Shown here: in pieces, positions 2,319 through 40,246 of the stretch | Numbering within the stretch: position 1 is the stretch's first letter | Layout: each line of letters begins with the position of its first letter | Source of the DNA: Desulfonema limicola | Lineage (GTDB): Bacteria > Desulfobacterota > Desulfobacteria > Desulfobacterales > DYRC01 | Direction: 5' to 3' | Length of the DNA: 40,246 bases | Assembly (NCBI GenBank): GCA_020718925.1 | Contig: DYRC01000003.1 | Coordinates: 1-40,246, forward strand | Program-made: the position numbers and the translations under genes | The notes under the pieces: model-generated | Told to the model about the DNA's origin: nothing | Seen by the model: the letters and a program-made list of their open reading frames with translations, nothing else | Database searches by the model: none

Positions 2319-4058
2319 TCAGCTTGCCAATCTTGTTGTCCTCTCACAGAGCCTGAACACGCTCACCTTTTCCACCAATTCCTCGGCAATCCGGGCGTGG
2401 CTGTTGTTCAGGAGTGCCATCTCGCTGACCGCTTTGCTGATCTGATCGATCCCGGCTGCCTGCTCGCCGGTCGCGGCTGCAATGGCATTCATAAGAGAGC
2501 GGATATGACTGCTGCCTGTCGTGATACGGGTGAATATGTCATCAATCTCGGCAATCAGCATCAGCCCGTGATCCAGCCGGTCCATTATATCGGTTATCAG
2601 AATGGTCGTATTTTTAACGGCTTCTGCGGAGCGATGTGCCAGATTTTTCACTTCAGCCGCAACCACCGAGAATCCCGCGCCGGATTCTCCTGCTCTTGCC
2701 GCTTCGATTGCCGCATTCAGTGAGAGCATATTGATCTGAAATGCAATATCATCAATGACTTTGACGATTTTCCGCATTGCCTGCCCCGACTCGCCGATGC
2801 TTTTCATGGAATCTGTCAACTGCATCATAGAACGGTTATGCAGGATAGATTGCTTTGCTTTCTCAATCATCGTATCTGATGATGCGACAAGATTATCCGC
2901 CTTTGCCGCGTTTTCCGCATTGTTTTTTGCCATCGCATCTATCTGGTTCAGCGAAGCGGAGGTTTCCTCAATATTGGTCGCCTGACGGATTACGCCGTCT
3001 GCCAGCGTATGTGATTTTCCGATAATTCCCCCGATCATCTGATGCAGGCTTGCAATCATGCGGTTCTGAACCTCAGCCAGTTCGCCGATTTCATCTTTCC
3101 GATTCATCTTCAGGGTTTGGGTCAGATCGCCGTTTGCGATACAGTGTGAGCATTCGCAAAGCTGCCTCAGATTGCGGGAAATGCGTTTGGAAAAAACAAC
3201 CGCAGATACGGATGCGAAAAACCCGAGAATGCTGCCCATAATCAGAGATATACTGATGATTTCGCTGTGAAGTCTGCGAACATCATTTTTGTCTGTAAAG
3301 TACAGCAGCATCAGATTCCGATTTTCCGGGTCTTCTGTGAACGGTCTGATGATCAGAATACCGTCCTGCTGACCGACTGAGTAATGATCCGAGTAATAAG
3401 AAAGATCGTGCAGGCGAATATCCTCTGCTTTGAGCATTTCCTGTGATTCAGCAAGAATATTAACAGCATTGTTCTTTTTATCAAGAATCGCAATCACAGC
3501 ATTTTTGCCGGAGATACGTTTCAAAAATTTCGCATCAATGTTTTTCTTCAGTACCAGTGTACCGATAAATGCGCTATCTTTGATGACAGGCGCGTACAGA
3601 ACAATTCTCAACTGATGGTCTTCTGTTATAATCCTTTGAAAAATTTCCTGATTTTTCCATTTTTCTTTTGCAATGAAAAGTTGTTTTTCAGCGCTCTGAG
3701 TTTCCGTGCTTGCAATTAATTGATAATTTTTATCATAAAACTCAATAATATCCGAATTGACAATCTTTTGCTGCAACAGGAGTTTTTTGTGCAGCGGCTC
3801 GGTTTCTTTGGTGAACCATGCAATTTTGATCAAATCAGATAAATTCGGATCCGATACGACAAAATGAGTATATTTGCGATACTGCTCGATAACAAACCTG
3901 AAATCTGCAACGATTTTATCAATATCCTGCAATATTCTTTCATTTTTATCAGATACGAGAACCTTTTCCGACTGAACGGAAAATACGCATACCATTGACA
4001 AAATCGCTGCGATGGACAATCCGGCAGCAAACACAGCCAGTTTTGTTCCGATTTTCAT
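2319..4058 (-). CDS. Methyl-accepting chemotaxis protein: two TM helices, a ~250-aa periplasmic sensor domain, a HAMP domain and an MA signalling domain.
   Basis: Conserved MCP hairpin region (IAFQINMLSLNAAIEAARAGESGAGFSVVAAEVKNLA). A HAMP-like segment follows the second TM helix. The track start at 4076 is GTG, so I prefer the ATG at 4058 (MKIGTKL). Confidence 0.9.
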   Translation of the reverse strand: MKIGTKLAVFAAGLSIAAILSMVCVFSVQSEKVLVSDKNERILQDIDKIVADFRFVIEQYRKYTHFVVSDPNLSDLIKIAWFTKETEPLHKKLLLQQKIVNSDIIEFYDKNYQLIASTETQSAEKQLFIAKEKWKNQEIFQRIITEDHQLRIVLYAPVIKDSAFIGTLVLKKNIDAKFLKRISGKNAVIAILDKKNNAVNILAESQEMLKAEDIRLHDLSYYSDHYSVGQQDGILIIRPFTEDPENRNLMLLYFTDKNDVRRLHSEIISISLIMGSILGFFASVSAVVFSKRISRNLRQLCECSHCIANGDLTQTLKMNRKDEIGELAEVQNRMIASLHQMIGGIIGKSHTLADGVIRQATNIEETSASLNQIDAMAKNNAENAAKADNLVASSDTMIEKAKQSILHNRSMMQLTDSMKSIGESGQAMRKIVKVIDDIAFQINMLSLNAAIEAARAGESGAGFSVVAAEVKNLAHRSAEAVKNTTILITDIMDRLDHGLMLIAEIDDIFTRITTGSSHIRSLMNAIAAATGEQAAGIDQISKAVSEMALLNNSHARIAEELVEKVSVFRLCERTTRLAS

Positions 4059-4076
4059 CCGAAAACCCTTTTCCAC

Positions 4077-5243
4077 CTAAAACTCAATAGCAATCTGTGC
4101 GGTCAGCACATCTGCTTTATCATCATTTTCAAATTCATCATGGCGATATTCCAGTGCAACAGATGTTTTATCGAATATATTTACGCTGACAACACCCATG
4201 TAGCGGCTTTCGGGAAAGAACTCCTCTGCATGATCCGATCCCTGATATGCCAAGCCGAATGTGGTCTCTTTGCCAAACATCTCGGCGGTATAGCCGATTT
4301 CAGCATTCCATGTGCTTGTTTTTTCCCCTGTAAAAACAGGTCCGATTCCCATTGCTTCCAATGCGCCCGGTAACAACTCCGACATATTCCATTCCGGTTC
4401 CTCAAGCATGGTGATATATTCTCCGATCAGCGTCAACTGTCCGAATTTGATGACAGCATAAGCACCGAGACCGGGTATGTAGTCCCGAAAAGAAAACGCA
4501 AGTCCCATACTTTCGGCATGGCTCTTTTCTTCTTCAAGAACATCTCCCCAGCCGTTTGAATCAATCAGGCTGTTGATGTATCCCAGCCCGATATCCATGC
4601 TGAAACCCTCTTTTCCCATCGTATAGCCCGCAGCAACACCGAAGTTGTCCGCATGATTATCGCCGCCGTCTTTATTCACATCTCCGTTGAACATATATGC
4701 CGCAGCATAAAACCCTTCTGATTTGAAACCGATTTCAACAGCCGATTCCCGTGTTTCACCCAATTCCAGCGTCAGCGGATCGGAAATCATATTGGATTTG
4801 AAATTGCCGAAAGGCACATACAGCTTTCCTGCCTTGAGATAAAGCGGCATGACATCCGCACCATCCAGCAGAATAAAGCCTTTATCCAGAACAACATCTT
4901 CATCGTCTTCGTATAAAAAGAGCAGACTTCCTTTGACATGCTTGGCAATATCAATATCAATGCCCACCTCCACTTTTGATAAAGCCAGATCACTGGTATT
5001 GTTGTCCTCCGCGTAGGGATCGGCAAAATTCATTTTTTCATAGCTTCCTTCTGCTTCGATAACGCCGCTGAAACTGATACGCTCTGCCCATTTGCCCGGA
5101 AGCGCTTTATCTTTCAACTGCTCCTCAATCTGCTTAACCCGTTCACTCAGATCACCACTCGGTGTTTCCTCGGCATACGCCGTGAATACAAGCGAAAACA
5201 CGCATACCACCAGACACAATACTGCCCTGTTCACTTTTTTCAT
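4077..5243 (-). CDS. Putative outer-membrane beta-barrel porin.
   Basis: Signal peptide (MKKVNRAVLCLVVCVFSLVFTAYA), alternating-hydrophobicity strands rich in G/Y/D, and a C-terminal ...IAIEF ending in Phe. An RBS aaaaggaga precedes the ATG. Confidence 0.6.
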   Translation of the reverse strand: MKKVNRAVLCLVVCVFSLVFTAYAEETPSGDLSERVKQIEEQLKDKALPGKWAERISFSGVIEAEGSYEKMNFADPYAEDNNTSDLALSKVEVGIDIDIAKHVKGSLLFLYEDDEDVVLDKGFILLDGADVMPLYLKAGKLYVPFGNFKSNMISDPLTLELGETRESAVEIGFKSEGFYAAAYMFNGDVNKDGGDNHADNFGVAAGYTMGKEGFSMDIGLGYINSLIDSNGWGDVLEEEKSHAESMGLAFSFRDYIPGLGAYAVIKFGQLTLIGEYITMLEEPEWNMSELLPGALEAMGIGPVFTGEKTSTWNAEIGYTAEMFGKETTFGLAYQGSDHAEEFFPESRYMGVVSVNIFDKTSVALEYRHDEFENDDKADVLTAQIAIEF

Positions 5244-28998: not shown

Positions 28999-29085
28999 TG
29001 GTGCGAAAGGGGAGACTTGAACTCCCATTCCGTCGCCGGAGCCGGATCCTAAGTCCGGTGCGTCTGCCAATTCCGCCACTCTCGC
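28999..29085 (-). tRNA. tRNA-Leu (anticodon TAG), class II with a long variable arm and an encoded CCA.
   Basis: The minus strand reads gcgagagtggcggaattggcagacgcaccggacttaggatccggctccggcgacggaatgggagttcaagtctcccctttcgcacca. The acceptor stem gcgagag pairs with ctttcgc, the anticodon loop is ct-tag-ga, and the T-loop is gttcaagtc. Confidence 0.9.
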
Positions 29086-36256: not shown

Positions 36257-36679
36257 ATGCGTAAACTTCTTGTTATTCTGATGATATTGGTATTTTCGGA
36301 TTCATCGGCGTTTGCGGAAATATTTTCGTGGACTGATGAGAAAGGCGTTAAGCATTACAGCACCACCCCGCCAGATGACAAAGACAATTACCGAAAAAGC
36401 AGTGAAGTTCCTTACAATGCCCAAGAAGACGAAGCGCAGGCGCAGGCATATCAGCAATGGCTTGATCAGAAGCAGCGGGAAGAATCCGAAAAAGCTCTTG
36501 AAAAAGAAAAACAGGCGGAGGAAAAGAAGAAAGAACAGGAGAAAAAAACTCAGGAAGGGGCTGAAAAAGCAAAGCCTCCGGCTGATACGGAAAAGGCGCA
36601 GGTTGAAGGTGAGAAGCCTCAGACAGAAACCGAACAACCCCCGCCACAGAATCAGCAAAAGAGACGCAGGACTTTCTGA
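36257..36679 (+). CDS. DUF4124-like secreted protein with a Lys/Glu-rich tail.
   Basis: Signal peptide, then FSWTDEKGVKHYSTTPP (a DUF4124 hallmark), then a K/E/Q low-complexity region. Confidence 0.7.
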   Translation: MRKLLVILMILVFSDSSAFAEIFSWTDEKGVKHYSTTPPDDKDNYRKSSEVPYNAQEDEAQAQAYQQWLDQKQREESEKALEKEKQAEEKKKEQEKKTQEGAEKAKPPADTEKAQVEGEKPQTETEQPPPQNQQKRRRTF

Positions 36680-36706
36680 GTATCAGAAATGGATAACAGG
36701 CTTGAT

Positions 36707-37993
36707 TTATACCGCATAACGATAACCGTCTGCTTTTTGGATTACCTTGCAGTATTTATGAGAGAGTTCCAACCGTGTTCTGCCTTCAACCGGCATGTGA
36801 AAGATACCTGAAGCTCTTACGGTGATTCGTCCCGAATATATTCCCGCGTTTTTTCCTTTTGTAATAAAGGCTTTGACCATATCACCGGTCTGAAAACCGA
36901 AGAATGACTTCTGTCCGGTTCTGTGTCTGATAGGAAATCCGTATTTATCCGTTTGGCAGATCTGCCGAGTACCGAATCCCATAGCTCTGATCTGCAATGA
37001 TCCGATTCCGTCTGTCTTCAGAGTTTCGGGAGTACTCAATCCCACACATGCGGCATCTGCCCAGTGGGTTTTCGATAATGAACGCTGAATTCTGTTGAAT
37101 TTCGTCAGTCCGCCGCTTCCTGCTTCTACCGGACATCCGAATGATTTCAATCTTCCGAATAACGCCCATCGGGTAGCATTGACCGCCGCCGCATCTTTTA
37201 ACGGAGCTTTTGCCTGTGCTTTGATCTTTTTCAGCACTTCCGGCTTTTTCTTCAGAAAATCCTCTACGGGCTTATTGCCTTTTTTCTCATTACATGAACG
37301 GCAGGACAGCGTAAGATTGCTGATTCTGTCAGACCCGCCGCTGCTTCTCGGATTGATATGTTCGATTTCCAAAGGAACATCTTTCTTTCCGCAATAAGCG
37401 CATGTCCGCCGCCACTTTTCAAGCAGATATTCCCTGCACTCATATCCGGCAAGCGTTCCCTGCTGATATTCAACGCCGGAAATTTCAGGGTTTTCCATTT
37501 TCTGCGTATCAAACCGCACAAGTTCCTGAGAAATCGCCTGAATCGGAGATATTTTAATCAGACGCCGAATCCATGTTTCAACATTGGCAATGCGGCTTTC
37601 CAATGAAGGCGGCAGCCATCCTTTTTTGCGGGTACGGTTCATAAATCGCGGCTTGCGATAACGGGTATTCCGGTTTCTTCGTGATCGTCTGATTGCCCTT
37701 CTGCTCTCCAGACTGTCTCTGACTCTCTGACCACGATGTTCTATCTCCGCTGCAAAAACAACTTCTCCTGAAATATCATTGACAATCGCAAGCCCTGTCT
37801 TTTTGCTTCCCGGATCAATTTTGACTCTCAGCGGCATGGGTGAGGCATCAGGCACTTCGTGTTTCAGAATAATCGTGAACGGAAATCTGCGGAATACCGC
37901 CGCTTTTCCCTGTTTCAGCAATTCCCTTGCACGTTTCGGTCTGCATGGCGTCAATGTTCTGTTTTTCGTGTCTGTTACAAAAACTCTCTGCAT
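36707..37993 (-). CDS. iscB: IscB RNA-guided endonuclease (OMEGA system; a Cas9-ancestor type with a split RuvC domain and an HNH insertion).
   Basis: N-terminal PLMP-like domain (VFVTDTKNRTLTPCRPKRARELLKQGKAAVFRRFPFTIILK). RuvC-I KIDPGSKKTGLAI (D60). Arg-rich bridge helix RRAIRRSRRNRNTRYRKPRF. RuvC-II SQELVRFD (E157). HNH CAYCGK...EIEHINPRSSGGSDRISNLTLSCRSCNEKKGN. RuvC-III THWADAACVG (H310, D313). Confidence 0.9.
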   Translation of the reverse strand: MQRVFVTDTKNRTLTPCRPKRARELLKQGKAAVFRRFPFTIILKHEVPDASPMPLRVKIDPGSKKTGLAIVNDISGEVVFAAEIEHRGQRVRDSLESRRAIRRSRRNRNTRYRKPRFMNRTRKKGWLPPSLESRIANVETWIRRLIKISPIQAISQELVRFDTQKMENPEISGVEYQQGTLAGYECREYLLEKWRRTCAYCGKKDVPLEIEHINPRSSGGSDRISNLTLSCRSCNEKKGNKPVEDFLKKKPEVLKKIKAQAKAPLKDAAAVNATRWALFGRLKSFGCPVEAGSGGLTKFNRIQRSLSKTHWADAACVGLSTPETLKTDGIGSLQIRAMGFGTRQICQTDKYGFPIRHRTGQKSFFGFQTGDMVKAFITKGKNAGIYSGRITVRASGIFHMPVEGRTRLELSHKYCKVIQKADGYRYAV

Positions 37994-38241
37994 TTTTTAA
38001 AAGCTCCTTTAAGAGCATCAGCCTTGCGGCTGTAATGTTTGCCTCGCCAATGTTATAACGGCTTTTTACGCTCGGCACACTGACTTCACCTCTTTCATCT
38101 GTTTAATACCGAACAACAGAGCATAGAACTGGCAGGCATTCTATGGTGTTATGACCGAAATAACGTAGTTCTTTTCAGAACTCAGGCTGGTCACACATAG
38201 GACTCTCTCAAGCCCTTCGCGCAGGCGCGTGAGGGTGTGAC
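37994..38241 (-). ncRNA. Predicted omega RNA scaffold of IscB. Boundaries are approximate and the guide is expected at its 5' (higher-coordinate) end.
   Basis: This is a non-coding, hairpin-rich ~250 nt directly 5' of iscB on the same strand. Hairpins include cagccgcaaggctg and the ccctcacgcg..cgcgaaggg hairpin at 38209-38241. In characterised IscB loci the omega RNA occupies exactly this position. It was not checked against a covariance model. Confidence 0.5.
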
Positions 38242-38350
38242 TATTATAAGCCGATTGTTGCGGAGATACCCCGTCCAAGCCCTTCGCGCACACGCGTGAG
38301 GGTATGACATCAGCAGCGGTTTTTTTTATACTTACTATGCCCTTCGCGCA
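38209..38350. repeat. A 33-bp palindromic repeat in two full copies (30/33 identical) plus one 12-nt partial copy, separated by unique 34-bp and 30-bp spacers.
   Basis: Copy 1, 38209-38241: caagcccttcgcgcaggcgcgtgagggtgtgac. Copy 2, 38276-38308: caagcccttcgcgcacacgcgtgagggtatgac. Partial copy, 38339-38350: gcccttcgcgca. Confidence 0.8.
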
Positions 38351-38426
38351 TGTATAAGAAAACTTCTGATAAAAAATATGTCCACAGATATAGACAAAAC
38401 TATAGTAACTTCAATAAATAATTTGA

Positions 38427-39071
38427 TTATGTTACCAAAGATATTAGCTTGGTTACTATTGGAGAAAATTTATAATTCATAGTTCCTCCCCAGCCACTTT
38501 CTTGAATCAGTAATAATCCCATATTGATAAGTCCATTTATTAATAAAGCATCCTTACTTTCTGGACTAACCCAAAGAACTTTTTCTTTGGAATCGGAAGA
38601 TGAATCTTTATCGGAAGATTCTGTTCCAATAATAACCTCGCTATAATGAGAATGATTTATTAAGAACATTATCTCATCAGCAGAAATATCTCTGATTATT
38701 CTTGATAAAAGATATGATTCATGGGGAGTTATATCTTCATCCTTAATGCAGTTTTGAACCACTCTCTTCAGATATCTGATCTTTTCTTCATCAATAGTCT
38801 GAAGAACTGACAGAATCGCTTCATTAGTGATTTTATATTGTGAATCTGACATATTACGAATTTTATCTTCTTGCGATTTTAGGATATCTTCTATCTCCTT
38901 AATTGCCGTTTCAGTACGCTTTTTATAACGACCAAATGCTAAAGTGTTCATAAAAAGCGGAAGAAGTGCCGCAGTTCCTCCAACAGCAGCTATAGCCGTT
39001 GCAGCAATGCTCACTGGCAAACTACCACTCACCTTTTCCAAAAAAGATTCTTTTTCCATATTTTCCCTCAT
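38427..39071 (-). CDS. Hypothetical N-terminally membrane-anchored protein in a visibly AT-rich segment.
   Basis: TM segment LPVSIAATAIAAVGGTAALLPLFMNTLAF followed by a helical domain. An alternative ATG at 39059 has the better RBS (gaggga). No recognisable family. Confidence 0.55.
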   Translation of the reverse strand: MRENMEKESFLEKVSGSLPVSIAATAIAAVGGTAALLPLFMNTLAFGRYKKRTETAIKEIEDILKSQEDKIRNMSDSQYKITNEAILSVLQTIDEEKIRYLKRVVQNCIKDEDITPHESYLLSRIIRDISADEIMFLINHSHYSEVIIGTESSDKDSSSDSKEKVLWVSPESKDALLINGLINMGLLLIQESGWGGTMNYKFSPIVTKLISLVT

Positions 39072-39313
39072 GGATTAAAATTCAAAATATAAAATGAGAC
39101 TTTCATTAAAACACTTTATCTATTTCAACAAAACGCTGAATGTTTATCACATGATTTGAAGGATGTCAAACTATGTACATCAAAAAAGGAATGCTAAAGT
39201 ATTCAGCAATTCATTATGAGATATGGCAGGTTCGCCGTATCTTTATCACGGTGATTATCCGATGTCAGACAAAGCTGCCCTTGCCGGAAGTTTCTTTTTA
39301 TTCGGATTAACAT

Positions 39314-39340
39314 AAATCCCGCGATTTCATCAGCCCTGAT
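39314..39340. repeat. 27-bp direct repeat, copy A, upstream of mazEF.
   Basis: aaatcccgcgatttcatcagccctgat is identical to 40128-40154. Confidence 0.85.
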
Positions 39341-39435
39341 TTCAACCTCTTTCAACCCGCTTCTTTTCAATTCTTGACTTTTGCCCGCAAGTGATGATAC
39401 TGGATTATCTGATGAAAACAAAAGAGGAGGCTGAT

Positions 39436-39675
39436 ATGTATCAGAAAATCAATATCGTTTTACCTGAAACAACATTGCGTCTGATTGATCATATAACAGA
39501 TAAAAAGAACAGAAGTCGGTTTATTGACGAGGCTGTTAAATATTACATGGAACAGGTCGGAAAAATCAGTCTGCGGGAGCAGTTGAAACAGGGAGCAATC
39601 AGAAGATCGGAAAGAGACCTGAATCTTTCACGGGAATGGAATGTTTTTGAAGAGGAAGCATGGCAAAAAAGATAG
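39436..39675 (+). CDS. mazE: Ribbon-helix-helix (CopG/MazE-like) antitoxin.
   Basis: MYQKINIVLPETTLRLIDHITDKKNRSRFIDEAVKYYM has an RHH pattern. Strong RBS aaagaggagg lies 5 nt before the ATG at 39436. It overlaps the toxin gene by 16 nt. Confidence 0.75.
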   Translation: MYQKINIVLPETTLRLIDHITDKKNRSRFIDEAVKYYMEQVGKISLREQLKQGAIRRSERDLNLSREWNVFEEEAWQKR

Positions 39676-40025
39676 AACCTCCGAAACGGGGAGAAGTGTT
39701 TCTGGTCAATTTTGATCCCACAATCGGAGCTGAGATTAAAAAAACAAGACCGGCTCTGATTCTACAGAATGATATTTCAAATGAATACAGTTCTGTAACA
39801 ATAGTGGCAGCGATAACATCCCGATTTGACGAAACTTTATATCCGACCGAAGTGCTGATACATGCACCGGAAGGAGGTCTGAGCAATGATTCTGTCATAT
39901 TACTGAATCAGATACGATCAATTGACAAACAAAGACTGATTAAAAGATTGGGCTTATTGAAACCGGACACTATGAAAAAAGCAGACTTGGCACTGCAAAT
40001 CAGTTTCGGACTTATTGAAGTATGA
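39660..40025 (+). CDS. mazF: MazF/PemK-family endoribonuclease toxin.
   Basis: PKRGEVFLVNFDPTIGAEIKKTRPALILQND...VTIVAAITS...ILLNQIRSIDKQRL is the canonical PemK fold signature. Confidence 0.9.
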   Translation: MAKKIEPPKRGEVFLVNFDPTIGAEIKKTRPALILQNDISNEYSSVTIVAAITSRFDETLYPTEVLIHAPEGGLSNDSVILLNQIRSIDKQRLIKRLGLLKPDTMKKADLALQISFGLIEV

Positions 40026-40127
40026 AAACAGATTGATAATTATTATAAAATCGGTTAATTAAAGCATAATCATCTGACCGCAACCGAAATCTAAAAGGGA
40101 GTGTAAAACTTTGCTGCCCACTTGAAC

Positions 40128-40154
40128 AAATCCCGCGATTTCATCAGCCCTGAT
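40128..40154. repeat. 27-bp direct repeat, copy B, downstream of mazEF.
   Basis: aaatcccgcgatttcatcagccctgat is identical to 39314-39340. Confidence 0.85.
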
Positions 40155-40246
40155 GTTCCGCTCTGACTTCATAAAAAACAATCGCTGTCCTTTCATATTT
40201 TCCGTTGCTTTTTTCAATCTGTTCGGATATAAATTTCAAAAGGATT

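Follow-up and report, generated by a model that had tools for sequence, protein, structure and literature searches.

Is the iscB locus of a Desulfonema limicola genome an intact RNA-guided nuclease system, and is it still a mobile element, a gene taken over by its host, or a relic? The locus lies in a stretch of 40,246 nucleotides (nt), contig DYRC01000003.1 of assembly GCA_020718925.1, which we refer to as the window and to which coordinates refer unless another locus is named. An initial annotation, made from the sequence alone, had proposed an intact IscB protein of 428 amino acids (aa) with an omega RNA encoded upstream and no TnpA transposase, and had suggested that the element might be immobilised or domesticated. 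Our analysis makes it very probable that the locus is a non-autonomous OMEGA module (the acronym stands for obligate mobile element-guided activity) of the IS200/IS605 superfamily, in which iscB and the omega RNA are intact, which TnpA could not mobilise, and whose right-end module has been duplicated. Here we follow TnpA nomenclature, in which the omega-RNA side is the right end and the stop-codon side the left end. The core of the module comprises:

36707..37993, minus strand: iscB coding sequence, 428 aa, ATG start.
37994..38031, minus strand: linker of 38 nt between the omega RNA scaffold and the iscB start codon.
38032..38241, minus strand: omega RNA scaffold (Rfam HEARO, RF02033; found with cmscan), 5' end GUCACA.
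38242..38257, minus strand: guide position, 16 nt directly 5' of the scaffold, CAAUCGGCUUAUAAUA.

The protein carries a PLMP-like N-terminus, RuvC-I (D60, within KIDPGSKKTG), an arginine-rich bridge helix, RuvC-II (E157, within ISQELVRF), an HNH region, RuvC-III (H310 and D313, within KTHWADAAC) and a C-terminal beta-rich WED/TI region. The HNH region contains the HNH histidine H212, N226, and the CxxC...CxxC zinc site formed by C198/C201 and C231/C234. Profile searches assign the protein to the NCBIfam equivalog NF040563 (guided_IscB, ‘RNA-guided endonuclease IscB’) with 474.3 bits, where the cut-off is 175 bits, and residues 4–318 cover positions 1–314 of the 314-position profile; Pfam recognizes RRXRR (242 bits) and HNH (53.6 bits). 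All of the RuvC, HNH and zinc residues listed in the initial annotation are present at the positions given there, and all fall in columns that are invariant in an alignment of 43 homologues (D60, E157, C198, C201, H212, N226, C231, C234, N235, H310 and D313). In a profile alignment to PDB entry 7xht, the catalytic residues of the window protein fall on the motifs IDPG, LELNRF, HYHHVVP and KDHYLDAYC of OgeuIscB. The catalytic residues published for OgeuIscB, D61, E193, H247, H340 and D343 (PMC9640706), lie within these motifs, and D60, E157, H212, H310 and D313 of the window protein align with them in that order. OgeuIscB and its omega RNA (PDB 7XHT, 7UTN, 8CSZ; Altae-Tran 2021, Kato 2022, Schuler 2022) share with the window the order PLMP, RuvC-I, bridge helix, RuvC-II, HNH, RuvC-III, WED, TI and an omega RNA encoded 5' of the open reading frame (ORF), although the proteins are only ~20% identical and OgeuIscB is longer (496 aa vs 428 aa). 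Two further traits set the window apart from OgeuIscB: the PLMP motif reads TLTP, and the 5' module of the omega RNA is duplicated upstream.

Coverage by sequence models stops at about residue 348. An AlphaFold2 model (predicted local distance difference test score, pLDDT, 79; predicted template modelling score, pTM, 0.72) was used as a Foldseek query. The top matches are all IscB–omega RNA–DNA complexes, aligned over the whole length (E 3e-23, ~520 aligned columns), with IsrB, Cas9d and Cas9 ranked below them; the best matches in PDB by sequence are likewise all IscB chains. Six beta strands are predicted between residues 367 and 427, where pLDDT is 73–84 (it falls below 50 at residues 341–359). 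The model thus predicts a C-terminal WED/TI beta-barrel, TI standing for interaction with the target-adjacent motif (TAM), and agrees with the TID-like domain proposed earlier. At the other end of the protein, the PLMP-like domain itself aligns with PDB IscB chains, as annotated, but the motif is T13-L14-T15-P16, with T instead of P at position 13.

A homologue search returned thousands of IscB proteins, with identities of up to 72%. Outside the 90% cluster to which the window protein belongs, the nearest proteins are 69–72% identical, and the first 120 listed are all at least 61% identical; named sources are Desulfobacter, Desulfamplus, Ktedonobacteria and cyanobacteria. Within the 90% cluster are two more intact 428-aa copies, L072 and L073 (95–96% aa identity), which differ in context: L072 lies in a context different from that of the window, and L073 belongs to a related lineage, L014, treated below. 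All three full-length ORFs keep every catalytic residue. Relative to these two copies, the ratio of nonsynonymous to synonymous divergence (dN/dS) of the window iscB is 0.29–0.52 overall and 0.10–0.41 for residues 1–320.

A covariance-model scan of the region upstream of iscB, which the initial annotation had taken for the omega RNA, finds HEARO on the same strand with 143.6 bits (E 3.6e-30; RF02033 gathering score, 83 bits). The match spans model positions 1–211 of 211, is not truncated, and ends 38 nt before the ATG; positions 37994–38241 hold no credible ORF. As described for RF02033 (Weinberg et al. 2010), the RNA lies upstream of an HNH-containing ORF and matches at full length; only its P1 stem is shorter, by two base pairs relative to the HEARO consensus. 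HEARO occupies an equal relative position in 20 related loci as well as in L072 and L073, and the omega RNA scores 134–144 bits in all three intact copies. Meers et al. (bioRxiv 10.1101/2023.03.14.532601) started from RF02033 when they modelled the omega RNA of IscB, and they note that structural elements farther downstream are missing from it. The 38-nt linker is probably a 3' extension of the omega RNA; its minimum free energy fold has two small hairpins, the second of which holds an AAGGAG ribosome-binding site. The family profiles, the PDB matches by sequence and by fold, and the covariance model all point the same way, and we consider it confirmed at the level of sequence that the window protein is a true IscB and the window RNA a true HEARO RNA. 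By analogy with the characterized members, we infer that the window IscB would perform RNA-guided, TAM-dependent double-strand cleavage.

The position of the guide is set by the HEARO 5' boundary together with the published IscB guide geometry (PMC9640706), and its length would be the 16 nt reported for IscB (PMC12660989). This position is no simple transposon–flank junction, which the initial annotation had cited as the source of IscB guides. A copy of the omega-RNA 5' module lies on either side of it, forming a direct repeat that the initial annotation overlooked. The repeats and the intervening spacers are arranged as follows:

38209..38241, minus strand: repeat copy 1, equal to omega RNA nt 1–33 and made up, in order, of GTCACA, the imperfect hairpin CCCTCACGCG-CC-TGCGCGAAGGG and CTTG.
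38242..38275, minus strand: spacer 1, 34 nt between copies 2 and 1, including the guide position.
38276..38308, minus strand: repeat copy 2, which agrees with copy 1 at 30 of 33 positions and has the same hairpin (−8.4 kcal/mol, z −2.2).
38309..38338, minus strand: spacer 2, 30 nt.
38339..38353, minus strand: repeat copy 3, a degenerate half copy in which TGCGCGAAGGGC is exact at 38339–38350 and the hairpin has lost its 5' arm.

In TnpA terms, copy 1 is the right-end hairpin of the transposon (−8.5 kcal/mol folded as DNA, z −2.0) with the terminal ...TGAC. A pattern search of the window for the full repeat gives two matches where none is expected, and one for the 3' arm TGCGCGAAGGGC gives three where 0.35 are expected; the motif is found nowhere else in the window or in the unrelated loci that we fetched. 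L072 and L073 have the same layout, a partial repeat, a spacer, a full repeat, a spacer and then the omega RNA, so that each copy has two full repeats, one partial repeat and two spacers. With 2.5 units the structure is short for a confident designation as an array. The repeats are 80–100% identical across copies and loci, and window copy 2 is kept at 87–93% in L072 and L073. The spacers, by contrast, are only 41–53% identical between loci, no better than shuffled sequences, and spacer 1 of the window is 49–52% identical to its counterparts. In none of 20 other IscB loci, each of which has a HEARO RNA, is the start of the omega RNA repeated upstream.

Several details bear on how the repeats arose. 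The two spacers of L072 resemble each other at 65% identity, a level reached by 1 of 500 shuffles, and we therefore conclude that a spacer plus a repeat was recently duplicated in tandem there. Copies 1 and 2 are 100% identical in L073, and in the window both are followed by CTTG, which L072 and L073 lack. The outermost repeat is truncated to differing extents in L072 and L073, and the sequence past the outer repeats looks like decayed scaffold (GAGAC...). The simplest reading of these sequences is that the repeats represent recurrent local duplication, with some homogenization, of the guide-proximal module. Their origin as a genome-wide repeat of the repetitive extragenic palindromic (REP) type is disfavoured, as neither the window nor the other loci that we fetched contain a solitary copy.

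A rather unlikely alternative is that the extra repeats are spare or relic TnpA right-end sites, or REP-like hairpins that already lay beside the insertion site, and have no part in guide RNA. Each full copy does retain the hairpin together with ...TGAC at its end, the mark of right-end cleavage, the start of the repeat coincides with the HEARO/right-end boundary, and the spacers behave as locus-specific flank. On the other hand, neither the rest of the 40-kb window nor the other loci fetched from the population contain a solitary hairpin, and no tnpA or left end was found with which such sites could pair. Moreover, copy 2 shares locus-specific traits with copy 1 (CTTG in the window, complete identity in L073), which argues for local duplication rather than a pre-existing target.

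The same arrangement invites comparison with CRISPR (short palindromic repeats that are clustered and regularly interspaced). CRISPR-associated IscB (DelIscB; Altae-Tran 2021, PMC12660989) and omega-RNA arrays (PMC10691335) also have repeats with unrelated spacers upstream of iscB, and there too the repeats either stem from the guide-proximal portion of the noncoding RNA or are compatible with it. One could accordingly imagine the window repeats as a functional nascent CRISPR-like omega-RNA array, in which each spacer–repeat unit offers an alternative guide to the single scaffold and spacers turn over; IscB would then have been caught on the path that gave rise to CRISPR-associated IscB and Cas9. 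The contrast between conserved repeats and shuffle-level spacers favours the idea, as do the presence of the layout in all three intact copies and in none of the 20 other loci, the degenerate outermost repeat, reminiscent of CRISPR arrays, and the literature reports that associations of CRISPR arrays with IscB arose on several occasions and that arrays may stem from omega-RNA segments duplicated in series (PMC10691335; DelIscB, PMC12660989). We nevertheless judge it improbable. With 2.5 units only, the window differs from CRISPR-associated IscB in that its repeat is the scaffold's own first 30–33 nt and forms no long repeat/anti-repeat duplex; it pairs with the remaining scaffold only through the 6-bp P1 stem (GUCACA/UGUGAC), a weak anti-repeat. 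Neither cas1/cas2 nor any other cas gene occurs in the annotated neighbourhood, and the spacers match no phage, viral-contig or local sequence. The likeness of the L072 spacers fits slippage or duplication rather than acquisition, and decayed-scaffold-like sequence follows each outer repeat.

If the locus is a non-autonomous OMEGA module, as we favour, how does it move? As annotated, no TnpA accompanies it: there is no Y1 (HUH) TnpA among the precomputed Pfam matches of the listed genes of the source contig, nor in another ten small ORFs from the window. This absence is normal, because tnpA lies near only ~1.5% of iscB genes (Meers et al., bioRxiv 10.1101/2023.03.14.532601). Two further features define the left side:

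36700..36706, minus strand: stop-side element boundary, where the similarity between copies ends at ...TAAATCAAG (36700–36703), 4–7 nt past the stop codon.
36257..36679, plus strand: DUF4124 gene, 140 aa (Pfam PF13511), convergent host flank outside the element.

The left end recognized by TnpA is expected to carry a hairpin resembling the first omega-RNA hairpin. The stop-side DNA of the window (36695–36790) has none and folds no better than shuffled sequences on either strand (z +0.39 and +0.69). The initial annotation had already seen that a hairpin is missing here, correctly as to the structure but naming the end ‘right’ where TnpA nomenclature makes it the left. Three ~70%-identical relatives (L008–L010), the closest examined, share instead a block of ~55 nt after the stop codon with a hairpin like the first hairpin of their own omega RNA, which folding confirms for L009 (−11.9 kcal/mol, z −2.2). 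Because the window has no left-end hairpin while its relatives have one, the element should not be excisable by TnpA; on these sequence grounds it looks immobilized with respect to TnpA, in line with the earlier suggestion, the hairpin having been either lost or never present. Of the attributes of a mobilizable IS200/IS605 element, the window lacks both the pair of end hairpins and tnpA, the latter being typical of the IscB family. The possibility that a left end is hidden in the last ~90 nt of iscB was rejected, as no structure there rises above that of shuffles; nor is the near-invariance of the last 65 nt of iscB special, because the low synonymous divergence (dS) predicts it.

The stop-side boundary is sharp, common to the window, L072, L073, L014 and a fourth copy, L065 (see below), in the alignment, with BLAST end points at 36700/36701. 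It is seen in two contexts, and the omega side continues as repeats with unrelated spacers. The gap between the DUF4124 stop (36679) and iscB is exactly 27 nt (36680–36706), as the initial annotation gave it. In the relatives L008 (4830–4890), L009 (5291–5345) and L010 (3270–3325), the stop-side end is followed by TTATGAAA in three different contexts; its reverse complement, TTTCATAA, contains TTCAT, the TAM reported for the Geobacillus IscB element.

The ISGst IscB elements of G. stearothermophilus (bioRxiv 10.1101/2023.03.14.532601) offer the closest comparison for mobility. Like the window element they are non-autonomous and of IS200/IS605 type, have no adjacent tnpA, and are co-oriented with the upstream gene. 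They possess both end hairpins, are mobilized in trans by a genomic TnpA, and take their guide from the flank; the window differs in the absence of the left-end hairpin and in the further right-end copy upstream of the guide position.

Since TnpA cannot act here, the element appears to rely on homologous recombination for its persistence and spread. The exact sequence of the window protein is found on the seven contigs shown of the eight read, from Trout Bog lake metagenomes and metagenome-assembled genomes, in a constant context and with DNA that is 99.95–100% identical. In the L014 lineage, iscB occupies the identical chromosomal site, with flanks 91.5% identical to those of the window; L073 and L014 overlap identically over 96 nt, flank included. 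The dS of the host flank between the window and L014/L073 lineages is 0.26–0.33, and that of iscB is 0.085 (0.056 for residues 1–320 and 0.18 for residues 321–428), so that the iscB core is ~4-fold less diverged than the host flank. The low dS of iscB relative to the flank implies that the core of the element is younger than the split of the hosts or has been homogenized by recombination.

The last ~300 nt of iscB, encoding the TI domain, is the most divergent segment in every pairwise comparison. At window 36745–36944 (iscB residues ~350–416) there are 10–17 differences per 100 nt, vs 0–3 in mid-gene, and the differences among the three copies are both synonymous and nonsynonymous. This pattern in the sequences suggests recombination, or diversification of TAM recognition.

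Two other alleles extend the picture. In the same sample as one IscB-bearing contig there is an allele without IscB, L079, with a flank 99.4% identical (jgi 3300000230 TB_GS10_10DRAFT_10006333, 3424–4324, compared with window 36690–40246). After an identical DUF4124 gene, L079 has a cassette of HTH_3 (93 aa) and Gp49-like (HigBA-type) genes and then sequence identical to window 40192–40246; ~3.5 kb of the window (iscB, a 214-aa ORF and MazEF) stands in place of ~0.8 kb. The search for other copies that the initial annotation had proposed thus yielded the two intact ones and one shattered, L065 (DYRK01000578.1). The latter holds three iscB fragments, at 2513–2584, 2588–2792 and 3496–3569, which are 96–98% identical to the window's, and it shares its downstream flank with the intact L072 copy. 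The fragments are interleaved with small ORFs resembling toxin–antitoxin genes, and the last codons of one PIN-like ORF run into a fragment. That ORF and the flank shared with L072 disfavour an assembly chimera, and L065 looks like a real decayed sister copy, though this is not proven. L072 itself has, at the end of its contig (2885–3024), a 140-nt piece 100% identical to positions 765–904 of its own iscB and to window 37698–37837. The piece represents either another fragment of iscB, lying ~1 kb downstream, or an artefact of assembly.

These alleles speak to the suggestion that the gene has been domesticated for a cellular role, such as RNA-guided regulation or defence, as in TnpB-derived regulators. 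The element does occupy a single chromosomal site in two lineages with an 8.5% difference between their flanks, without transposase or left end, and among toxin–antitoxin modules. The nuclease residues are intact, though, whereas regulators usually lose theirs; the two lineages do not share a conserved guide at this site; the site is polymorphic for presence and absence within the lake sample; a decayed copy exists; and iscB is far less diverged than its flank. On this evidence we find domestication very improbable.

How the omega RNA would be transcribed at such a locus is suggested by the gene upstream:

38427..39071, minus strand: ORF of 214 aa, co-oriented with iscB, no family match.

This ORF has no Pfam or PADLOC match, and an exact protein look-up found no record. 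A bias of IscB elements towards the orientation of the gene upstream of them is reported by Meers et al. (bioRxiv 10.1101/2023.03.14.532601), and a terminator scan reveals no terminator-like site between the ORF and the array. Judging from this arrangement, read-through from the 214-aa ORF may supply the omega-RNA transcript.

In the mechanism that we propose, a transcript would most likely enter from this co-oriented gene and be trimmed to a ~16-nt guide (38242–38257) and the scaffold starting with GUCACA, ~210–250 nt encoded upstream of iscB. The IscB–omega RNA complex would bind guide-complementary DNA beside a 3' TAM, which the C-terminal TI domain would recognize, the HNH domain cutting the target strand and RuvC the non-target strand. 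In intact elements, cutting of element-free alleles forces recombinational re-copying (Meers et al., bioRxiv 10.1101/2023.03.14.532601). The window copy would spread and turn over by homologous recombination within a small hypervariable island of toxin–antitoxin cassettes. The right-end hairpin module of 30–33 nt would have been tandemly duplicated together with adjacent sequence, giving the order repeat, spacer, repeat, spacer, half-repeat, and only the spacer abutting the complete scaffold would be expected to serve as guide.

Several observations count against this interpretation. No target of the guide was found in the window, the related loci, a phage collection or IMG/VR: searches of IMG/VR with the 20-nt guide-proximal sequence and with the repeat gave no matches, BLAST of the phage collection with the spacer region gave chance-level matches only (E at least 0.3), and the 16-nt guides of all six spacers produced nothing meaningful at up to three mismatches in the window and related loci, L079 included. 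The missing match in L079, an IscB-less allele, is contrary to the prediction of the homing model. An exact empty site was not found; the nearest IscB-less allele is L079, and because it differs by an entire cassette replacement it cannot fix the boundary on the omega side, which could lie either at repeat copy 1 or past copy 3. A simple consensus scan detected no minus-strand promoter upstream of the array, and transcription of the omega RNA here is something we infer only. P13 occurs in 90% or more of the 43 homologues, and TLTP is common to all three copies of the sub-family; because the first P of PLMP is T and PLMP mutations lower cleavage (PMC9640706), cleavage activity is not assured. 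Finally, the arrays are known from three closely related elements only, the window, L072 and L073.

Could the locus then be a decaying, functionless relic of an old insertion, its ORF intact by chance or recency? The TLTP motif and the lack of a guide target in the sequences searched would fit, together with the missing left-end hairpin, the absence of tnpA and the shattered sister copy in L065. Yet three independent full-length ORFs retain all catalytic residues with a core dN/dS of 0.1–0.4, the omega RNA scores far above threshold in each, and the iscB core is much less diverged than the host flank. We see little chance that decay is the explanation, and continue to regard the locus as an apparently intact, immobilized OMEGA module.

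The surroundings of iscB consist of toxin–antitoxin modules with shared intergenic blocks. Short conserved blocks recur between small-gene cassettes, in the window at 39240–39267 (minus strand), at 39314–39340, which equals 40128–40154, and at 40184–40246, and elsewhere in L073 (66–203) and L065 (1–110, 1035–1157 and 1605–1742). A block (C/T)TGACATC(G/A)GATAAT(C/T)ACCGTGATAAAG lies upstream of the gene preceding iscB in the window, L073 and L065. The 28-nt conserved module at 39240–39267 is promoter-like by eye only. An integron-like cassette array was considered and rejected: no integrase is present and the cassette orientations are mixed. Farther away in the window, two minus-strand ORFs may represent one catalase gene that is split or frameshifted: the ORF at 1243–1659 (138 aa) matches only positions 1–128 of the 383 in a catalase profile, and the ORF at 203–1183 (326 aa) follows it. 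Upstream of genes for trigger factor, ClpP and ClpX lies a tRNA of 84 nt whose variable arm is long (29002–29085, minus strand; Rfam tRNA, 55 bits).

As an IscB–omega RNA pair the window adds little to what is known, given thousands of homologues, a characterized family and the usual absence of tnpA. The locus is an ordinary and apparently intact copy of IscB, a transposon-borne RNA-guided nuclease from which Cas9 descends, and its sole unusual trait is the upstream repeat of the start of the omega RNA. The protein is a compact (428 aa) candidate editor. Because the TI region is the most variable among near-identical copies, the three proteins might combine a common scaffold with different TAMs. 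The IscB-bearing, IscB-less and shattered alleles of the lake constitute a natural system for the persistence and spread of IscB without TnpA mobility. The main interest is evolutionary, and lies in the tandem copies of the first 30–33 nt of the omega RNA with unrelated spacers, and in the recent duplication of a spacer plus a repeat in L072. It is possible, if quite unlikely, that the guide-proximal module was duplicated repeatedly and independently at each locus, with the copies kept by selection and the spacers replaced. The array would then be a living intermediate between a transposon end and a CRISPR-like multi-guide array without Cas1/Cas2, and array birth would occur inside an immobilized IscB element that spreads by recombination.

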